DNA of 63,293 nt from a virus. Lineage: Duplodnaviria > Caudoviricetes. Below, piece after piece: positions 1-63,293 of the stretch. The stretch spans positions 1-63,293 of the IMG/VR virus record IMGVR_UViG_3300036980_000702. The stretch is one strand, 5' to 3'. The notes beneath the pieces are model-generated. The model was given only the letters and a program-made list of their open reading frames with translations. It ran no database searches and was not told the DNA's origin. Each line of letters begins with the position of its first letter. Position 1 is the stretch's first letter. Position numbers and translations under genes: made by a program.

Positions 1-127
1 GTTTGATTTCCTTTTCCTCAAAGTCAATACCAAGCCTGACGTTATCATCAAACTTGGTAGTGGCCGTAATTGTTTCCAAACTTAGGGAGTCGGGGTTAAA
101 ACTGAAATTGACCGTAGTCTCTCCGGT
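1..127. repeat. Terminal direct repeat (circular assembly overlap), identical to 63167-63293
   Basis: The first 127 bases match the last 127 bases exactly, and an ORF reads through the junction. Confidence 0.97.
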
Positions 128-1687: not shown

Positions 1688-1816
1688 ACGGACCTTAAAT
1701 CAATCGGCATTGATTCAAAATTGGTTAATGACCTCAAGAGCAAAGTTGCGCAAAATGGAGAATCCATTAAGGAGGTAGTCGAAAAACTAATCCGTGATTA
1801 TCTTAAAAAAAATTAG
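1688..1816 (+). CDS. 42-aa RHH protein with an ACG start (absent from the ORF track)
   Basis: AGGAGGAG RBS then ACG-DLKSIGIDSKLVNDLKSKVAQNGESIKEVVEKLIRDYLKKN*. Confidence 0.6.
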   Translation, partial: TDLKSIGIDSKLVNDLKSKVAQNGESIKEVVEKLIRDYLKKN

Positions 1817-1835
1817 GAGAGGAGAAAAATTATTA

Positions 1836-3875
1836 ATGGAATTCAAAGATTTTAAAAAATTACTACAAGACAATTTTAGCTCGATTGCTCAAGAAACCAC
1901 CCATTTATTCGAAGTTGAGTTAGACAAGGACGAACTTTGGAACCTGTACTTAGATAGCTTTCCCACCGGAACCAATGAAATTTATCGGGAAAGACGGGAA
2001 CACGATTGTAGTTGCTGTCGGCATTTTATTAAGGCTATCGGCAATGTGGTCGTTATTAAGGACAACACAATTAAAACTATCTGGGATTTTGAAATTGACG
2101 ATCCTGTTTATGCTCCAGTAGTAAAGGCTTTATCGATGTTTGTTAGGACAAAGGTAGTTGCCGATGTTTGGTTTAGCAGAGAGGCTAATGTCGGAACGGA
2201 TAGCAACTATGAGGAGTCAACAGACAAGAGTATTATTCTTTGGCATCACTTTTCTCTAAAGCTTCCGAAGCAGTTTGTTAATAACAGAAGTGAATCTTTG
2301 GGAGAAATTAAAGGTTCCTTCAGAGACACTAGGAACGTGTTTAAGCGCTCCCTGGATGAGATTACCGAGGAAAGTATACTGACGGTACTTGAATTAATAT
2401 CCCAGAATTCCCTTTATAAAGGTGAGGAGTGGAAGGTCGTATTGCTTGAGTTTCTGAAATTCAAACGGGCTTACATGGCTTTACCGTCTGAGCATGAGAA
2501 AGAGAACTACACTTGGGAGCAGTCAGTCAAACTCGGTGGAGCCATGGGCAGAATCAGGAATCACAGTATCGGTACACTCCTGGTTAATATCAGCGAGGAT
2601 ATGGATTTAGATGAAGCAGTTAAGAAGTATGAAGTAATTGTGGCTCCAGAGAATTACAAACGGCCACAGGCCATCTTTACCAAAAAGATGTTGGAGGAAG
2701 CTAAAAAAACTATTGAAGAACTCGGATACCTGGATTCGCTTGGCCGAAGATATGCAACACTAGATGATATTACCGTAAATAATATCTTATTTTCTAATCG
2801 GGATTCAGCGAAACGAATTACCGGGGTCTTTGAAGAAATGGCTGGAGAAGTCGCGATTGACCCGAAGAAGTTTTCTAGGGTTGAAGAAATTTCAGTTGAT
2901 GATTTTTTGAATAATGTTTTGCCGACTGCGAAAGAACTTGAAATATTCCTAGAGAATCGGCACTCAAACAGTATGGTTTCTCTAATTGCACCGGAAAACG
3001 CTGGTACTCCAAGCATGTTTAAATGGAATAATCCTTTCAGTTGGGCGTATGCCGGGAATATTACCGATAGTTCGATGAAAGGGAATGTCAAGATGGCTGG
3101 CGGGAATGTCGAAGGAGTTCTTCGATTCTCGATTCAGTGGAATGACAGTGAATTCAATCCTAACGATTTCGATGCTCACTGCGTTGAGCCCAATTGGTAT
3201 GAGATTTATTACCCCAATAAGATGTCCTTAAGTCCAACAGGTGGAATGCTCGATGTTGATATTATCCGTCCAGTGAAAAGTGTTCCTGCTGTTGAAAATA
3301 TCACTTGGGCCAATACCAAGAAGATGGCAAAAGGTGTCTACCAATTCTTTGTCGAATGTTATTCGAATAATGGTGGACGGTCTGGGTTTAAAGCCGAAAT
3401 CGAATTTGGCGGCCAAATCTATGCCCTTGAATATAACAAGGAATTAAGACAAAAAGAACATGTTCAAGTGGCAGAGGTTACTTTTGACGGTACTAGCTTT
3501 AGTATTGTAGAGAAATTACCGTCTAGCATATCTTCACGAAAAGTGTGGGGATTACAAACCAACCAGTTTGTACCAGTTTCCGTGATGATGTACTCCCCGA
3601 ATTACTGGGACGAACAATGGGATATCGGTCATCGGCACTACTTCTTTATGCTGAAAGGTTGTGTTAATCCGGAAACCCCGAACGGCTTTTATAATGAATT
3701 CTTGAAAGAAGATCTATTGCAACATAAACGAGTCTTTGAGGCACTTGGTAGTAAGATGAGAGTTAAAGATGTCGAGGATCAGTTATCCGGTGTCGGATTC
3801 TCCTCGACCAAGCGAAACGAAGTCTTGGTAAAAGCAAAAGGTCAAACTGAACGAGTAGTCAAAATTAAATTTTAA
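1836..3875 (+). CDS. Large conserved phage protein with a Cys motif and a YfaP/DUF2135-like domain
   Basis: HDCSCCRHFI motif; LRFSIQWND...DFDAHCVEP...GGMLDVD...VENITW; AGGAGAGGAG RBS before the ATG at 1836. Confidence 0.7.
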   Translation: MEFKDFKKLLQDNFSSIAQETTHLFEVELDKDELWNLYLDSFPTGTNEIYRERREHDCSCCRHFIKAIGNVVVIKDNTIKTIWDFEIDDPVYAPVVKALSMFVRTKVVADVWFSREANVGTDSNYEESTDKSIILWHHFSLKLPKQFVNNRSESLGEIKGSFRDTRNVFKRSLDEITEESILTVLELISQNSLYKGEEWKVVLLEFLKFKRAYMALPSEHEKENYTWEQSVKLGGAMGRIRNHSIGTLLVNISEDMDLDEAVKKYEVIVAPENYKRPQAIFTKKMLEEAKKTIEELGYLDSLGRRYATLDDITVNNILFSNRDSAKRITGVFEEMAGEVAIDPKKFSRVEEISVDDFLNNVLPTAKELEIFLENRHSNSMVSLIAPENAGTPSMFKWNNPFSWAYAGNITDSSMKGNVKMAGGNVEGVLRFSIQWNDSEFNPNDFDAHCVEPNWYEIYYPNKMSLSPTGGMLDVDIIRPVKSVPAVENITWANTKKMAKGVYQFFVECYSNNGGRSGFKAEIEFGGQIYALEYNKELRQKEHVQVAEVTFDGTSFSIVEKLPSSISSRKVWGLQTNQFVPVSVMMYSPNYWDEQWDIGHRHYFFMLKGCVNPETPNGFYNEFLKEDLLQHKRVFEALGSKMRVKDVEDQLSGVGFSSTKRNEVLVKAKGQTERVVKIKF

Positions 3876-35103: not shown

Positions 35104-35529
35104 ATGAAAAAGAATTGTTACTTAGATAGCCCGTACGGACAAAAGAAAAACAGTCGTGGAATTCGAAACGCAATAGTAGCGGCATATATTTGGAGCATTC
35201 GCAAACAGTGGACAACTTACATGTATAACAAGTATTACCGTTTAACATCTGCTGAAGCCGCGCAAAAAACCATAGCGGGTGTTGGCGACATCAAAAGGGC
35301 GTGGAAAACGACTACATTAAGAGACAAAAACCGGATGTTTTACTCTAATTACTCTACACCGTGGGCATTCGCTCCTTTTCGCAGTGAACAATTTAACAAT
35401 ATGGTTGGCCTATATAAGGCAATCATTAAAGGAGAAATGACCATGTATCGCGATATGTGCAAAATGTTTGCTCCGAAAGTTTGGGAATACGCCGTTAATA
35501 AAGGGGTATATCCAGAATGTATGAGGTAA
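35104..35529 (+). CDS. Moron cargo protein inserted between terS and terL
   Basis: Own promoter (TTGCAC-17-TATACT, ~35028-35056) and GGGGG RBS before the ATG at 35104. Confidence 0.7.
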   Translation: MKKNCYLDSPYGQKKNSRGIRNAIVAAYIWSIRKQWTTYMYNKYYRLTSAEAAQKTIAGVGDIKRAWKTTTLRDKNRMFYSNYSTPWAFAPFRSEQFNNMVGLYKAIIKGEMTMYRDMCKMFAPKVWEYAVNKGVYPECMR

Positions 35530-35681
35530 AAAAACTATCCAGACAAGGCGGCCCCGGACGCGGCCAAGGCCGTCCCCCCAAACCCGGTGGCGCAATGCCA
35601 ACCCGCGCCATCAGGATGACGAATGAGGAAGTCCAAAAGGTCAAGGAATTTCTCAAAGAACTAAGAAAACCCTCTAAATAA
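35517..35681 (+). CDS. 54-aa DNA-binding protein (GRP/AT-hook-like motif plus RHH-like; absent from the ORF track)
   Basis: MYEVKKLSRQGGPGRGQGRPPKPGGAMPTRAIRMTNEEVQKVKEFLKELRKPSK*. Confidence 0.65.
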   Translation: MYEVKKLSRQGGPGRGQGRPPKPGGAMPTRAIRMTNEEVQKVKEFLKELRKPSK

Positions 35682-37656: not shown

Positions 37657-37729
37657 AAATCATCACCTCGCCATTAATTATACTCCTTTCGCCCCTACAA
37701 ATCAACAAAAAATAATTTGAAAAAGGTAG

Positions 37730-37758
37730 TTGACAATACCCCGGTAGTGTGGTATCAT
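37730..37758 (+). promoter_or_regulatory. Repeated cassette promoter, copy 1
   Basis: TTGACAATACCCCGGTAGTGTGGTATCAT. Confidence 0.85.
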
Positions 37759-38592: not shown

Positions 38593-38600
38593 ACACTCAA

Positions 38601-38627
38601 AGGCCCACCGGGAGCCTCAATTCCGGT
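38601..38627 (+). ncRNA. Repeated H-type pseudoknot motif, copy B
   Basis: AGGC-cca-CCGGGA-GCCT-caa-TTCCGG. Confidence 0.65.
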
Positions 38628-39359: not shown

Positions 39360-39413
39360 AGTTGCGGAACTGGGTTGGTAAAAATCGAATGAGGCACACT
39401 TGGTAGTATTCAA

Positions 39414-39439
39414 AGGCCCACCGGGAGCCTCAATCCCGG
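39414..39439 (+). ncRNA. Repeated H-type pseudoknot motif, copy C
   Basis: AGGC-cca-CCGGGA-GCCT-caa-TCCCGG. Confidence 0.65.
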
Positions 39440-39619: not shown

Positions 39620-39634
39620 AATAAAAAAGTTCTC

Positions 39635-39868: not shown

Positions 39869-40091
39869 ATCAAACGACCGCCAACAACTACAGATCTGGT
39901 TTGTCGGCGGGGAACAAATGAAAATGAAAAGAAACCTAGATTTGGAATCCTTTAATACCGGGGTTCCGCGAGGGGAAATCATCCGGGAATCAATTTCTAT
40001 CCGCAACTACATCAAAAAAATATTGGACGAAGAATCATCTCTAGCAGAAAAAACCCTGCTAGACCTGGTAAAAAAACATTTTGAAAAATAG
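39861..40091 (+). CDS. RHH-like regulator, paralog 1 (MPK...KKHFEK)
   Basis: Paralog of 41951-42181; beta strand then helices (RQQLQIWF...GEIIRESI). Confidence 0.65.
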   Translation: MPKSNDRQQLQIWFVGGEQMKMKRNLDLESFNTGVPRGEIIRESISIRNYIKKILDEESSLAEKTLLDLVKKHFEK

Positions 40092-40092
40092 A

Positions 40093-40121
40093 TTAACAAT
40101 ACCGCGGTAGTGTGGTATCAT
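40093..40121 (+). promoter_or_regulatory. Repeated cassette promoter, copy 2
   Basis: TTAACAATACCGCGGTAGTGTGGTATCAT; contains the palindrome TACCGCGGTA. Confidence 0.8.
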
Positions 40122-41950: not shown

Positions 41951-42181
41951 ATGCCTAAAAAAATAGTAGACCCCAACCGCCAGCAATACAATATTTGGTT
42001 TGTGGGGGAAGATCAAATCAAACAAAAACGGGCGTTAGAGCTTGAAACATTCCAAACCGGGATCCCCATGGCTGAAAATATCCGAGAGGCAATTGCAATT
42101 CGGGCTTATCTCAAAGATTTTTTTGGGGACGAAACCGTAATTCCCCTGCTAGATCTAGTAAAAAAACATTTTGAAAAATAG
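41951..42181 (+). CDS. RHH-like regulator, paralog 2 (MPK...KKHFEK)
   Basis: Paralog of 39861-40091. Confidence 0.65.
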   Translation: MPKKIVDPNRQQYNIWFVGEDQIKQKRALELETFQTGIPMAENIREAIAIRAYLKDFFGDETVIPLLDLVKKHFEK

Positions 42182-42182
42182 A

Positions 42183-42211
42183 TTGACAATACCCCGGTAG
42201 TGTGGTATTAT
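42183..42211 (+). promoter_or_regulatory. Repeated cassette promoter, copy 3
   Basis: TTGACAATACCCCGGTAGTGTGGTATTAT. Confidence 0.85.
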
Positions 42212-57307: not shown

Positions 57308-57616
57308 TTACTTCTGGATTATATTTCGTTTTAATACTTCCTTATCAAACCTCTGCGCTAAATGTTCAAATTCATTTTGGGTGGCGGCTAATTTCTTCCG
57401 CTCGTGATATAAATTAACCTTTTGTTCGATCAGAACATCAATTTTTTGATCAAACTCTTCTTGTTCTGCTTGAGTTAGCTTAACTTTAATCCCTTTTTCT
57501 TTATCAAAAACTCTAACATGATCGACTTTCGGATTTTTTAAAAAATCAGTCATTCTTTCAAGATTAAAATCTTCAATCGGACCAAAAGTTCCATCTCGGT
57601 TAATTGGTAACATCAT
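57308..57616 (-). CDS. Hypothetical protein
   Basis: AAGGAGG RBS, 102 aa. Confidence 0.65.
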   Translation of the reverse strand: MMLPINRDGTFGPIEDFNLERMTDFLKNPKVDHVRVFDKEKGIKVKLTQAEQEEFDQKIDVLIEQKVNLYHERKKLAATQNEFEHLAQRFDKEVLKRNIIQK

Positions 57617-58071
57617 TTGACCTCCTTTAATATTTTAATCGCCTTTTCAGCGTTTTCCCTCGTTAACGCTTCTGTGTATTTTGTTTGTACAAGATAGGGT
57701 AAAAGATCGCCCATATTATTACCATCGTCGATTATGACAAAATTTTCTGGTTCTTCATTACCCCGCCAAATCCAATCAATTAACCATCTTTTTACTTCTA
57801 TGCCTCTAATTGCTTCAGAAATACGTGGAGTTTGAGACAAACAACGACCCGGTATTACTCCATTATTATCCAAAATATCTTTTAAAAATTCGATATCCCC
57901 CCGCCACGCGCTCGAAACTACAATATAAGCACCAGTTTGTTCGAGGATATAATTAAGATTTTTAACCGCTTTTTCTCCAAATTTAGTTTTGGCAGGATTT
58001 CCGGGATTTCCCACAATGCAAGTACCTTTTGGATTCATTACTCCGTCGAAATCAAGGAAGATTATTTTCAT
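57613..58071 (-). CDS. HAD-family phosphatase (HAD_SAK_2-like)
   Basis: IFLDFDGV, VVSSAWR, RGIEV..WL, FVIIDD. Confidence 0.88.
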   Translation of the reverse strand: MKIIFLDFDGVMNPKGTCIVGNPGNPAKTKFGEKAVKNLNYILEQTGAYIVVSSAWRGDIEFLKDILDNNGVIPGRCLSQTPRISEAIRGIEVKRWLIDWIWRGNEEPENFVIIDDGNNMGDLLPYLVQTKYTEALTRENAEKAIKILKEVK

Positions 58072-58277
58072 TTTACCTCCAAATCTGGCGGGATTTCGAT
58101 AGGAGGGAGTGGAATTATAAAAAATTGCCAATGGGTTATATATCTACTTTTTAAATAATCTTCCTTATTATTTTTCCAATAACTTTTAATATATTCTTTA
58201 CATACAAATCCCCCTGCAACTACCCAAATATCTTTGTCAATTGGCGGTAACTCATCTTCTATTTTTATCCAGTTCAT
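58068..58277 (-). CDS. DUF551 protein
   Basis: WIKIEDELP...ITHWQ..P.PP. Confidence 0.8.
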   Translation of the reverse strand: MNWIKIEDELPPIDKDIWVVAGGFVCKEYIKSYWKNNKEDYLKSRYITHWQFFIIPLPPIEIPPDLEVK

Positions 58278-60103: not shown

Positions 60104-60388
60104 TTATTTCCCAAAATATCTATTTTTTAATCTGTTTGCCGTAGATTCTTGATTGTTATAAACCTTCGGTTCTTCTTTGGTTTCTACGGCAATTTCTTCC
60201 AATGGTTTTATGGGTTCAATTGTTTCCGCCAGTTGAACTTGAGAAACAATTTTTGTTTTACCTTGAGTTTTAATCAACAACCGGAGAGATTTTGAAAAAT
60301 CCCTTCCTTCCTCGTCAAGTCGCTTAAACCATAGAACGATTTCGGGATCTTCGACATCGTCGAATCGAAAAGATTTAATATGTTTCAT
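60104..60388 (-). CDS. ParR-like centromere-binding protein
   Basis: Directly after the actin-like gene; RHH-like SFRFDD...FSKSLRLLI with a flexible tail. Confidence 0.65.
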   Translation of the reverse strand: MKHIKSFRFDDVEDPEIVLWFKRLDEEGRDFSKSLRLLIKTQGKTKIVSQVQLAETIEPIKPLEEIAVETKEEPKVYNNQESTANRLKNRYFGK

Positions 60389-60396
60389 AGCCGCTC

Positions 60397-61395
60397 CTAC
60401 TTAAAACTAAGTTGATAGAGTATGTATGCGCCGTAACAGTTCAACATTTGAAATGCCTGCGGAAAAAGTATTTCCTGATTAAGTTTATAGCGCGCTTCGA
60501 AGTATGGTTTTAAAGGTTTAGCTCCACCTCCGGCCAAAAGAATATATCGATATCGGGACATATTTTTTAATCGGCTTGCAAGTTGGGTGGAAATCTCGGA
60601 TTCCAATTTGGAGTATTGTTTCGCCAATGCTGCATCGTAATTAATTTCAAACTGCCCGTTAAAAATTCTCTCGTTGTAAAATATTGTTTTAGTTAGTTCT
60701 CCGATGGAAATATCTTTTCCTTGATCTTCGAGCCACCTTTGAAGCCCATCATAAGCTTTAAACATTCCAAAATTGATCGAACCGGAACCGGTATCTAATG
60801 GTTCTCCCTCGGGATTCATTGATACATAATTAACGGTTTGATCCCCGATATCTAAAACCAAAACATTACTATTATAAACTTTTGGATAAACCAAATTAAG
60901 ATTCAGATCATAACAATATCCAAAATAGGCCGCTTCTGCCTCGGGGATAACGTGGCAATCATCAATAACAAAATCAATTACCTTCCCCTTCATATCCCCG
61001 GCACCGTGGACGATTTTATGAACCCCCAAAAAAGCCTCTTTGATCTTATCTCTTTGTTTTCCCCAGTCGCCAGCCGGGCAATTTGCCAGAAGGGTAACGT
61101 GTTCCCGGTTGCCGGTCAACATTGAGCAGGCCGTTAAGGTCTGAATTTCATTTTGCATGTTGGTTTTATCTTCGTCCCGGTTTTGCAAAATTCCATCAGG
61201 GAATTGGCGAATAGCAAGATCCCCAACTGCCCAATCGTCTCCCTTGTAATTAACCAGGATGTCGCTTGGCCGCGTGTTGGTTAAAAGATTGAACCCGTCC
61301 GACTTGGCAATAACCGATTGAAAAACCTCGGTTTTAGTCCCACGTAATCGTTTTGTAAACGCTCTTCCGCTGTCAACGATAACAATATTTTCCAT
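60397..61395 (-). CDS. parM: ParM/StbA-family actin-like ATPase
   Basis: VDSGRAFTK, PEA, LDIGDQTVN and LAGGGA actin motifs. Confidence 0.9.
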   Translation of the reverse strand: MENIVIVDSGRAFTKRLRGTKTEVFQSVIAKSDGFNLLTNTRPSDILVNYKGDDWAVGDLAIRQFPDGILQNRDEDKTNMQNEIQTLTACSMLTGNREHVTLLANCPAGDWGKQRDKIKEAFLGVHKIVHGAGDMKGKVIDFVIDDCHVIPEAEAAYFGYCYDLNLNLVYPKVYNSNVLVLDIGDQTVNYVSMNPEGEPLDTGSGSINFGMFKAYDGLQRWLEDQGKDISIGELTKTIFYNERIFNGQFEINYDAALAKQYSKLESEISTQLASRLKNMSRYRYILLAGGGAKPLKPYFEARYKLNQEILFPQAFQMLNCYGAYILYQLSFK

Positions 61396-61819: not shown

Positions 61820-62002
61820 TCACTTCAGTTCCTCCTCAATCTTTGGCAGACTTCTTTTAATACATTCCCGGACAATCATCGACTTACTGATCTCTTTACT
61901 TCCATTTTTTTGAGCTTCCCTAACCAAATCAGTAATTTTTTTGTTAATATCTTTTTTGATATAAAAATAAACACCTTCATAGTCTGGCAATTTTCTTGAC
62001 AC
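61820..62002 (-). CDS. RHH protein
   Basis: VYFYIKKDINKKI...ISKSMIVRECI. Confidence 0.7.
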   Translation of the reverse strand: MSRKLPDYEGVYFYIKKDINKKITDLVREAQKNGSKEISKSMIVRECIKRSLPKIEEELK

Positions 62003-62066
62003 CTCCCTTGATATTATGATATGATGCTATCATAATTTAAAATGGTTGTCAAGAAAAGGGATTGAA

Positions 62067-62240
62067 ATGGAAAAAACATTAGAAACAATTGTTATGATTA
62101 ATGAAGAATTGGACCAAGTAATATTTATAGATGAGGAAGGATTTGTTTGTATTGAAGATTGTACTAATAATGTAATATGTTGGGATAGAGAAGATGTAAT
62201 GAAAGTCTTAGATTTTCTCACAGACTTCCTGGACAAATAG
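62067..62240 (+). CDS. Small acidic protein
   Basis: AAGGG RBS; MEKTLETIVMINEE...; ends before the hairpin at 62268. Confidence 0.5.
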   Translation: MEKTLETIVMINEELDQVIFIDEEGFVCIEDCTNNVICWDREDVMKVLDFLTDFLDK

Positions 62241-62267
62241 AAATTTCTAAAAAATATAAAGATATAT

Positions 62268-62455
62268 AGGAAACCCCTCTAAAGGAGGGGTTTCCTTATG
62301 TGCTGGGTCGGTGCGCATCCGATCCAGTTTCGACTCCGGACTCGTCCGGGTGTCGCTCCGCCCAAAATGGCATGTAGCCAGGGGGCGTTCCTGTCCACGC
62401 AACTTGCAACCAAACAATAATTGTTCAGCCCAACTGCTGGCGGACACTGCAATGT
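62268..62455 (-). ncRNA. Putative stand-alone structured ncRNA (~185 nt)
   Basis: Promoter TTGACA-17-TAAAAT (62490-62462), GC-rich multi-stem body, terminator AGGAAACCCCTC...GAGGGGTTTCCT. Confidence 0.65.
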
Positions 62456-62594
62456 ATCTATATTTTACCTTTTGAATTAAAGTTTGTCAATAACAAACAA
62501 AAACCACCGGGTGAAAAGTCCGATGGTTTTTGCCATAAGAAAGAATATAAAATGAAGGAGAAAAATGAACAAAGATCCCTTGCGGGCGGAAATG

Positions 62595-62750
62595 TCAGTT
62601 TGATTTTAATTTAGCTTGCAATGATGGATAAGTCTTTTTTAAAACTGTTAATACTGCTGTGTTACAACCAGAACAAACTTCCCCAAGAGTACATCCGGGG
62701 TTTTCTTTAATAAAATCATATAAGCGTTGTTCTTTTTTAGTCAGTTCCAT
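62595..62750 (-). CDS. 51-aa winged-HTH protein, probably leaderless (absent from the ORF track)
   Basis: MELTKKEQRLYDFIKENPGCTLGEV...; TTGACA-17-TAAAAT ends 6 nt before the ATG. Confidence 0.6.
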   Translation of the reverse strand: MELTKKEQRLYDFIKENPGCTLGEVCSGCNTAVLTVLKKTYPSLQAKLKSN

Positions 62751-62791
62751 GTACTTATTTTAAATCATTAGTTTGCAAATGTCAATTGTTT

Positions 62792-62875
62792 TGGTTGATA
62801 GGGATGGATTCGAACCACCGCGCCCGGAGGAGCTGGTTTACAGCCAGCCGCAATCGACCACTCTGCCACCTATCA
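62792..62875 (-). tRNA. tRNA-Tyr (GTA)
   Basis: Acceptor TGATAGG/CCTATCA, anticodon arm GCTGG-CTGTAAA-CCAGC, variable arm, GGTTCGAATCC, encoded CCA. Confidence 0.93.
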
Positions 62876-62883
62876 GTATTGTT

Positions 62884-62975
62884 TGGCGGAAGGTGAAAGA
62901 TTTGAACTCTCACACCGTATCACTACGGTTTAAACGGTTTTCAAGACCGCCTCCTTACCATTCGGACAACCTCCC
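62884..62975 (-). tRNA. tRNA-Ser (TGA)
   Basis: Acceptor GGGAGGT/ACCTTCC, G73, anticodon TGA, long variable arm, encoded CCA. Confidence 0.93.
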
Positions 62976-63017: not shown

Positions 63018-63293
63018 TTAAAACTTTTTCCCGGTTATAACTAATAATCGGTTGTCAGTCCCGATCTCCACCCGAACCCCGACCAACCATTCCCGCCAGT
63101 ATAGATTACCTTGACCGTAGATCCCGGAATCAGTCCCGGAGAAGATTCCGGCTTCCCAGGTTTTTGGTTTGATTTCCTTTTCCTCAAAGTCAATACCAAG
63201 CCTGACGTTATCATCAAACTTGGTAGTGGCCGTAATTGTTTCCAAACTTAGGGAGTCGGGGTTAAAACTGAAATTGACCGTAGTCTCTCCGGT
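63018..63293 (-). CDS. C-terminal part of the junction-spanning 217-aa protein
   Basis: Ends ...WEAGIFSGTDSGIYGQGNLYWREWLVGVRVEIGTDNRLLVITGKKF*. Confidence 0.75.
   Translation of the reverse strand, partial: TGETTVNFSFNPDSLSLETITATTKFDDNVRLGIDFEEKEIKPKTWEAGIFSGTDSGIYGQGNLYWREWLVGVRVEIGTDNRLLVITGKKF
63167..63293. repeat. Terminal direct repeat (copy of 1-127)
   Basis: Exact 127-bp match. Confidence 0.97.

Follow-up and report, generated by a model that had tools for sequence, protein, structure and literature searches.

A candidate small RNA gene near the tRNA genes of a Caudoviricetes phage genome

What does a short island of G+C-rich DNA encode when it lies between two small genes at the early end of a phage genome, begins at a strong promoter and ends at a terminator? 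The island belongs to IMG/VR virus record IMGVR_UViG_3300036980_000702 (Duplodnaviria; Caudoviricetes), whose 63,293 nucleotides, analyzed here in full, we call the window. A first-pass annotation, made from the letters of the sequence, had described positions 62268-62490 (minus strand) as a novel phage RNA, and that description is reasonable but unproven. It would appear that the minus strand at 62262-62455 is an independently transcribed non-coding RNA gene of about 190 nt that belongs to no known family; we consider this probable, though far from assured.

The promoter (62462..62490, minus strand) is of the sigma-70/sigma-A type, with TTGACA at 62490-62485, a 17-nt spacer and TAAAAT at 62467-62462. 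It matches the consensus at 11 of 12 positions and lies where the annotation had seen a near-consensus promoter. Sites this good (at least 11/12) sit at gene starts, and the genome has 12 of them, compared with 2.8 +/- 1.5 in 30 mononucleotide shuffles. At the far end of the unit is a bidirectional intrinsic terminator (62268..62296, both strands), whose 12-bp stem includes 7 G-C pairs and is again found as annotated (62296..62268, reading along the RNA). It is common to the RNA and to orf64, a small gene that faces it, and has a predicted stability of -22 kcal/mol (z -4.68) on the minus strand and -24.5 kcal/mol on the plus strand. Since the U tract on the minus strand is interrupted (UUUCCUAUAUAUCUUU), read-through of the terminator in that direction is conceivable.

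The gene upstream, orf51 (62595..62750, minus strand; an open reading frame, or ORF, of 51 codons), has an intrinsic terminator of its own (62496..62534, minus strand). This is a 15-bp hairpin followed by UUUUUGUUUGUU, with a stability of -20 kcal/mol (z -5.46; 0 of 200 shuffles as stable); it ends 6 nt from the -35 box of the RNA unit, which it insulates from upstream transcription. The orf51 gene has its own promoter (62785-62757, minus strand) and an ATG 7 nt after the -10 box (window 62748-62785), and its mRNA is probably leaderless. Beyond it, tRNA-Tyr(GTA) at 62792-62875 and tRNA-Ser(TGA) at 62884-62975, both on the minus strand and both called by Rfam and by ARAGORN, follow a perfect 12/12 promoter (63014-62985, minus strand). 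The RNA promoter is the third of three tandem promoters of at least 11/12 (63014, 62785 and 62490). A unit with its own promoter, its own terminator and tRNAs nearby is what the first-pass annotation had described, and the locus is laid out in that way.

The island stands out sharply in composition. G+C is 0.65 at 62300-62399 and 0.28-0.35 in the flanks, bearing out the claim of a G+C-rich RNA in A+T-rich surroundings. The approximately 150 nt that follow the promoter are 59-65% G+C, and 120-nt segments at 62271-62450 reach 0.62, the maximum for a genome whose overall value is 39.9%. The RNA unit as a whole equals the neighboring tRNA-Tyr in G+C (0.58).

The same space might instead be occupied by a small protein gene (66, 57, 37 or 25 codons), or by a leader or attenuator that acts in cis. 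All three minus-strand frames are open across the region (66, 57 and 37 aa), and a structured, leader-like RNA followed by a terminator is what such an explanation calls for. Open frames are expected in G+C-rich sequence, however, and a reading of the sequence finds no Shine-Dalgarno sequence before the starts of the three frames. Codon periodicity is absent: G+C by codon position is 0.58/0.59/0.59 in the RNA region, as against 0.49/0.34/0.40 in a real phage gene. Three overlapping ORFs, two on the minus strand (66 and 57 aa) and one on the plus strand (54 aa), have no match in Pfam, and the 66-aa frame has no homolog among 5.8 billion protein clusters. The 57-aa frame draws nine weak matches in 1.84 billion representatives (best E 1.3e-9, none below 1e-10), eight of them spread over 3-12 short stretches of proteins of 506-1657 aa and one in a protein of 143 aa; both of the proteins inspected (P0017 and P0020) are tandem-repeat proteins and were rejected as relatives. 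A riboswitch, leader or attenuator is rejected as well, the next gene (62046-62240, plus strand) being convergent, which leaves a leader nothing to control. The annotation had found no ORF led by a ribosome-binding site and had named protein-level conservation as evidence that would speak against an RNA; the first holds, and no credible conservation was seen for the frames searched. A coding or leader function is therefore the least probable of the explanations weighed here, and a highly improbable one. Taken with the flanking signals, the sequence is that of a predicted promoter-to-terminator unit, transcriptionally insulated and non-coding.

The best predicted fold of this unit is a row of four hairpins followed by the terminator, at -81.7 kcal/mol (z -4.99; 0 of 200 shuffles as stable, terminator included). 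The transcript would start at A62455, 7 nt after the -10 box, a position inferred from that box rather than mapped, so that a leader of about 9 nt (ACAUUGCAG; 62447..62455, minus strand) stays single-stranded in the fold; with a start further upstream it could reach about 13 nt. Hairpin 1 (62392..62446, minus strand) takes up 55 nt and has 24 pairs in three segments (7 + 4 + 13), interrupted by two single-base bulges and a 2-nt internal loop and capped by a UUA apical loop. Folded alone it reaches -21.8 kcal/mol (z -2.89; 3 of 200 shuffles). Hairpin 2 (62359..62387, minus strand), in which CGCCC/GGGCG surrounds UGGC-UACAU-GCCA, reaches -13.7 kcal/mol (z -2.89; 1 of 200). Hairpin 3 (62331..62355, minus strand) has CGAC/GUCG around CCGGA-CGAG-UCCGG, and hairpin 4 (62304..62327, minus strand) pairs CUGG-A-UCGG with CCGA-C-CCAG across the 7-nt loop AUGCGCA. 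Nearly every base is paired; the 5' end, that 7-nt loop and a few short linkers are free.

The local hairpins drawn at first pass fare better in this fold than the architecture built from them. The stems GCUGAACAA/UUGUUUGGU, UGGC/GCCA and CUGG-UCGG/CCGA-CCAG are all in the minimum-free-energy structure. The CCGGAC/GUCCGG stem is there too, with five pairs (CCGGA/UCCGG) instead of six because the sixth would leave a 2-nt loop. The GCGU/ACGC hairpin is absent, as its 5' strand is used in hairpin 1. An enclosing helix of GUGUC-CGCC with GGCG..GACAC can be drawn as nine standard pairs, yet its probability in the ensemble is about zero, and forcing it gives -70.9 instead of -81.7 kcal/mol, a cost of 10.8 kcal/mol. 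The three-way architecture that this long-range helix would close is thus unsupported, and hairpins in a row replace it.

No known family accounts for the RNA. At the gathering score, the Rfam search called for at first pass, made over the whole window with Rfam 15 (whose families include 6S, SRP, RNase P, tmRNA, Y RNA/YrlA, pRNA, tracrRNA, riboswitches and ribozymes), returned only the two tRNAs. Relaxed to E<=10 with lax filters over 62100-62700, it gave 18 weak matches, all anchored on the terminator hairpins and none from the tRNA clan; the best of them reached 25 bits where the gathering score is 114. ARAGORN placed its two tRNAs elsewhere and reported neither tRNA nor tmRNA at 62268-62490. 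These negatives agree with the annotation, which had recognized no SRP, RNase P, tmRNA or 6S signature.

Families that depend on a partner gene can be judged by that gene as well. A Y RNA or YrlA working with Ro is rejected, with no Rfam match and no TROVE (Ro) domain in the phage, and a retron or other reverse transcriptase-associated RNA is rejected for want of an RVT_1 domain in the phage; control genomes were positive in both searches. A sponge for CsrA/Rsm was suggested by the GGA words of the RNA, seven of them compared with 3.3 +/- 1.4 (p 0.013 for GGA). Some trinucleotide reaches a count of seven in 57% of shuffles, so the excess is not significant; the words lie mostly in stems of the best fold, no CsrA gene was found in the phage, and the idea was set aside.

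The search for homologs came back empty in every collection to which it was applied. With the RNA as query, blastn (word size 11) found none among 50,697 phage records or 72,556 plasmids. Four exact or IUPAC patterns taken from the RNA matched 1, 0, 1 and 5 stretches in IMG/VR, which were rejected as chance matches in G+C-rich contigs with no wider likeness. A combined nhmmer and blastn search of 34 loci (313,782 bases) was negative. A covariance model built from the single RNA sequence and its best fold scored the RNA itself at 189 bits over 31 sources and otherwise gave four matches of 17 nt (E 3.5), and it found no homolog in seven whole virus records, six Bacillota loci, five whole genomes or 58 genomes of one class. 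DNA searches gave a 17-nt chance match in four of 18 virus records, two chance matches in coding DNA among 401 genomes of one Bacillota phylum, and, in the 58 genomes, one 29-nt match inside a gene read by eye as phosphoenolpyruvate carboxykinase; 459 Bacillota genomes were searched in all (401 + 58). Within the phage the unit is single copy. Its sequence occurs in one public run only, of sediment metagenome DNA, which is the probable source and which contains one identical contig and no variants.

The phage itself, to judge by its genes, is without a close relative in the collections searched. The record ends are identical over 127 nt (window 1-127 = 63167-63293), which makes it a closed circle of 63,166 bp; its class in IMG/VR is that of direct terminal repeats, and its estimated completeness there is 100%. 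It encodes a large terminase (TerL), a major head protein and an amidase, and the minus strand carries almost all genes, including one that spans the circle junction (2-505, continuing into 63018-63166). The closest TerL is 56% identical in IMG/VR and 43% identical among named phages, and this route to relatives led to 18 loci at 33-56% identity. The gene upstream of the tRNAs, used as a query for the same purpose, led to none.

A second route ran through an actin-like segregation protein (60397-61395; domains ALP_N and MreB-like_C), about 0.9 kb downstream of the RNA unit. Its relatives, at 34-53% identity, come from none and then one locus in IMG/VR, 11 metagenome loci and six genome loci. 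Five of the six genome relatives are in metagenome-assembled genomes (MAGs) titled Bacillota or Firmicutes, and four of these MAGs (G020-G023) fall among the 58 genomes that make up the one class searched above. The relatives' loci share with the phage only the actin-like gene and its small downstream partner; the small genes neighboring the RNA unit are not conserved in them. From the Bacillota MAGs, together with sigma-A-type promoters and GGAGG ribosome sites, the host may tentatively be placed in Bacillota. The pair itself (60104-61395), a ParM/Alp-type gene plus conserved small partner with relatives in Bacillota MAGs of one small class, suggests plasmid-like segregation, and the phage may persist as a phage-plasmid.

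Several observations weigh against an RNA gene at this locus. With no homolog there is no covariation, and no RNA run appears among the public runs in which the sequence is found. The promoter and terminator are known by consensus matches only. Much of the fold statistic comes with the terminator: the 158-nt body without it is only slightly more stable than shuffles (z -1.97, with 8 of 200 as stable), and neither hairpin 3 (-10.6 kcal/mol, z -1.37, 18 of 200) nor hairpin 4 (z -1.61, 13 of 200, for a slightly shorter piece) is significant alone. The opposite strand folds nearly as well (-80.6 kcal/mol, z -4.65), so that the choice of strand rests on the promoter and on hairpin 1, whose six G-U pairs become mismatches on the other strand.

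Alternatively, the locus might encode no functional RNA. The island would then be foreign or decayed G+C-rich DNA, or a DNA-level site (an origin, a partition site, a recombination site), lying between terminators by chance, and the promoter would serve another purpose or none. Such a reading fits a body that folds marginally better than shuffles and equally on both strands, and a unit conserved in no relative. It can also draw on the turn of the cumulative GC skew in the same zone (minimum at 62007), on the nearby segregation gene and on the loose 10-12-nt spacing of (C/U)GGA words at 62317-62360, a spacing read from the sequence. The skew turn, however, simply tracks gene orientation, and Tandem Repeats Finder reports no array in the RNA region at score 30, by which 11-nt iterons were rejected. 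A strong promoter and a terminator mark precisely where the island begins and ends, with four non-overlapping hairpins all between the two, which is how an RNA gene looks. We judge the absence of a functional RNA to be unlikely, and continue with the RNA gene as the preferred reading.

What might the RNA do? The first-pass annotation suggested a decoy, an antitoxin or a scaffold, none of which the tests support. Host RNA polymerase would transcribe it early and strongly, like the two units that precede it, as the third of three back-to-back promoter units (tRNAs, leaderless small gene, RNA). The transcript would accumulate as a stable folded molecule acting in trans, and would bind or tie up a host protein or ribonucleoprotein, a decoy serving host take-over or anti-defense. 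Its setting, close to phage tRNAs and small ORFan proteins in the early part of the genome and upstream of a gene for an RNA-repair-type HAD protein, is of the kind in which take-over and anti-defense functions tend to sit. This protein-binding or decoy role is a tentative proposal, possible rather than probable, drawn from anatomy and context. We favor a decoy over antisense regulation on three grounds: almost all bases are paired, the RNA has no significant complementarity to the phage's own transcripts, and it lies in the setting just described.

Stable RNAs near phage tRNAs have a precedent. In phage T4, two stable RNAs of unknown function, called C and D or species 1 and 2 and 100-150 nt long, are encoded in the tRNA cluster and cut out of its transcript. 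The present RNA is like them in being a folded phage RNA encoded beside phage tRNA genes. It is unlike them in having its own promoter, and in that a protein gene with its own terminator lies between it and the tRNAs.

Antisense regulation, which we think rather unlikely, would make the RNA a base-pairing small RNA (sRNA) that acts in trans on host or phage mRNAs, or on the mRNA of the convergent orf64. Pairing would involve the 5' end (ACAUUGCAG), the loop of 7 nt that caps hairpin 4, or the linker on the 3' side. With about 9 unpaired nucleotides the 5' end suits this role, but the RNA offers very little other single-stranded sequence, and complementarity to the rest of the phage is at chance level: the strongest, at E 0.56, covers 15 of 16 nt within the coding region of the actin-like gene, and the 5' end has a 10-nt match that falls within an ORF rather than at a start. 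Precedent is on its side, since known phage sRNAs are mostly base-pairing regulators, according to the accessible part of a review (PMC12197685).

The orf64 gene (62046..62240, plus strand; 57-64 codons, or 57 aa from an ATG at 62067; promoter at 61996-62025, plus strand) would be the cis target. The layout is convergent, the terminator hairpin is shared, bidirectional and fully complementary in the two transcripts, and read-through past the interrupted minus-strand U tract would yield transcripts antisense to orf64, in the manner of lambda OOP or of par. In lambda OOP/cII, in RNA II/fst of pAD1 par and in the type I antitoxin systems of Bacillus subtilis prophages, a convergent antisense RNA has its 3' end or terminator in common with the target. 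The present RNA is like these as a small RNA directed towards a small gene, the two 3' ends complementary through a bidirectional terminator. It is unlike them in that the overlap with orf64 mRNA is the terminator only (about 30 nt), with no further complementary repeats and no complementarity to that mRNA outside the terminator.

Nor does orf64 look like a toxin. Its translation is very acidic and soluble-looking, with no hydrophobic stretch, unlike type I toxins; a convergent type I toxin-antitoxin system was rejected for this and for the lack of any complementarity of at least 9 nt to 62025-62240. It is an ORFan that matched only itself among 5.8 billion protein clusters and belongs to no Pfam, PHROG or NCBIfam family (best DUF7369, 17.9 bits against a cut-off of 27). 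Just before orf64, at 61996-62052, face-to-face divergent promoters overlap (plus strand 61996-62025, minus strand 62052-62024) and separate orf64 from a small operon that starts with a 60-codon gene; the pair looks like a genetic switch.

The decoy role has one concrete form that can be compared with published RNAs. Here the RNA would be a new, long-scaffold decoy of a host RNA-guided or RNA-binding defense, specifically a mimic of the guide used by a Cas9-type (or other tracrRNA-using) nuclease in some uncultivated Bacillota host from the sediment, analogous to the viral single-guide RNAs vsgRNA and rAcrIIA1, which load into Cas9; alternatively it would be a solitary-repeat RNA anti-CRISPR (Racr), with hairpin 3 and the following ..GUCGAAAC as the repeat-like part. 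In the guide-mimic form, hairpin 1 would be the repeat:anti-repeat duplex and the 5' end of about 9-13 nt a truncated, binding-only guide. Either form is, in our estimate, very unlikely, and the guide mimic is the boldest reading that we retain.

Two preprints of 2026, in their accessible portions, describe vsgRNA and rAcrIIA1 as RNAs by which phages imitate single guides and disable Cas9; both are transcribed from promoters of their own and have a short guide, a capped repeat:anti-repeat stem and tail stem-loops before a terminator (10.64898/2026.06.01.729453, 10.64898/2026.06.03.729762). The first, of 89 nt, comprises a guide of 14 nt, a stem with a short loop as its cap and a tail that finishes in a terminator (10.64898/2026.06.01.729453); the second, of about 111 nt, has a duplex plus three stem-loops (10.64898/2026.06.03.729762). 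As far as those portions go, the present RNA is like both in outline: a -35/-10 promoter of its own precedes a small phage RNA whose 5' end is short and free, and a long duplex-like hairpin (24 bulged pairs, the first seven uninterrupted), further stem-loops (three hairpins) and a terminator follow. It is also like them in its intergenic position near small accessory genes, here among small ORFan proteins.

The differences are considerable. At about 190 nt it is about twice the length of the known examples (89-111 nt). The published screen of IMG/VR for vsgRNAs kept only hits shorter than 120 nt, according to the accessible text (10.64898/2026.06.01.729453). The known RNAs of this kind are, in the portions available, recognizably homologous to the host CRISPR RNA (crRNA) repeat plus tracrRNA, and some 80% of them have Acr or Aca genes as neighbors. 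The phage RNA has no match to tracrRNA or any other Rfam family at E<=10 and no similarity to any of the 50,697 phage records, a collection expected to include Streptococcus phages. Its neighbors match nothing: in Pfam, PHROG and NCBIfam the products of orf51, orf64, orf60 and orf69 fall into no family, Acr and Aca included. No repeat-like or tracrRNA-like match was found in the 401 + 58 Bacillota genomes searched. None of the 58 genomes gave Cas9 (TIGR01865); they make up the class whose prophages carry the nearest actin-like genes, a tentative host assignment, and the search was without a positive control, since 0 of 14 control genomes scored above the family cut-off (one scored below it).

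As for the Racr form, the 32-nt stretch around hairpin 3 and its ..GUCGAAAC tail may resemble type I repeats, and the pattern of hairpin 3 plus tail has no match in IMG/VR. Racr RNAs resemble the present one, as far as the accessible part of the source describes them, in being small non-coding phage RNAs proposed as protein decoys (PMC10651486). They are defined there by likeness to CRISPR repeats, whereas here no repeat was matched in IMG/VR or in the 459 genomes.

A wider comparison is with the G+C-rich intergenic RNA candidates that the DIMPL or GC-IGR approach collects from A+T-rich genomes, so far as the accessible parts of its reports go (PMC8723152, PMC11109978). The phage RNA shares with these an island far above genome G+C, dense hairpins, its own promoter and terminator, and membership of no family. 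It departs from them in being in a phage, not a cell, and in having no homolog in the collections searched, the GC-IGR candidates being accepted on covariation in homologs.

The genome holds other G+C-rich elements and repeats. Its second G+C island (35491-35670) was considered as an RNA gene and rejected: it reads as a small Gly/Pro/Arg-rich coding frame (35517-35680) followed by a terminator. A 30-nt G+C-rich element (CAAAGGCCCACCGGGAGCCTCAATYCC..) occurs at 960-989, 38597-38626 and 39410-39439, 83-100% kept; it is intergenic, just past a stop codon and ahead of the next ribosome site, with unrelated flanks, and is an unexplained cis element. A 68-nt repeat has three copies (37691-37758, 40054-40121 and 42144-42211), each before a plus-strand gene and each carrying a TTGACA / extended -10 promoter with a shared ACCCCGGTAGTGTGG spacer; they probably form a co-regulated set that shares an operator. 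A further repeat, of 63 nt, is found at 39624 and 41395.

Two other proteins deserve mention. One, at 57613-58131, in the same early region as the tRNAs, has a HAD domain of the type found in the RNA-repair proteins called 'Swiss Army Knife' (E 2e-21); the RNA unit is about 4 kb upstream of its gene, and the protein possibly counters host tRNA-cutting defenses. The other, of 693 aa (1794-3875), is without a match in Pfam, NCBIfam or PDB. Large Bacillus phages encode proteins that are 68% identical to it, and it belongs to PHROG 1735, a group of unknown function found in 557 phage records from many hosts.

The RNA is, on this showing, a credible but unproven orphan small RNA gene of the phage, a single, unconserved candidate supported by sequence signals. 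Phage small RNAs are few and come mostly from enterobacterial prophages, and recent work has found some that act directly as RNA decoys of the host's immunity. An early RNA that is stable, strongly expressed and encoded next to the tRNAs of an unrelated sediment phage would, if true, be a case from outside the model systems. If the RNA does bind a host factor, it would provide a handle on that factor.

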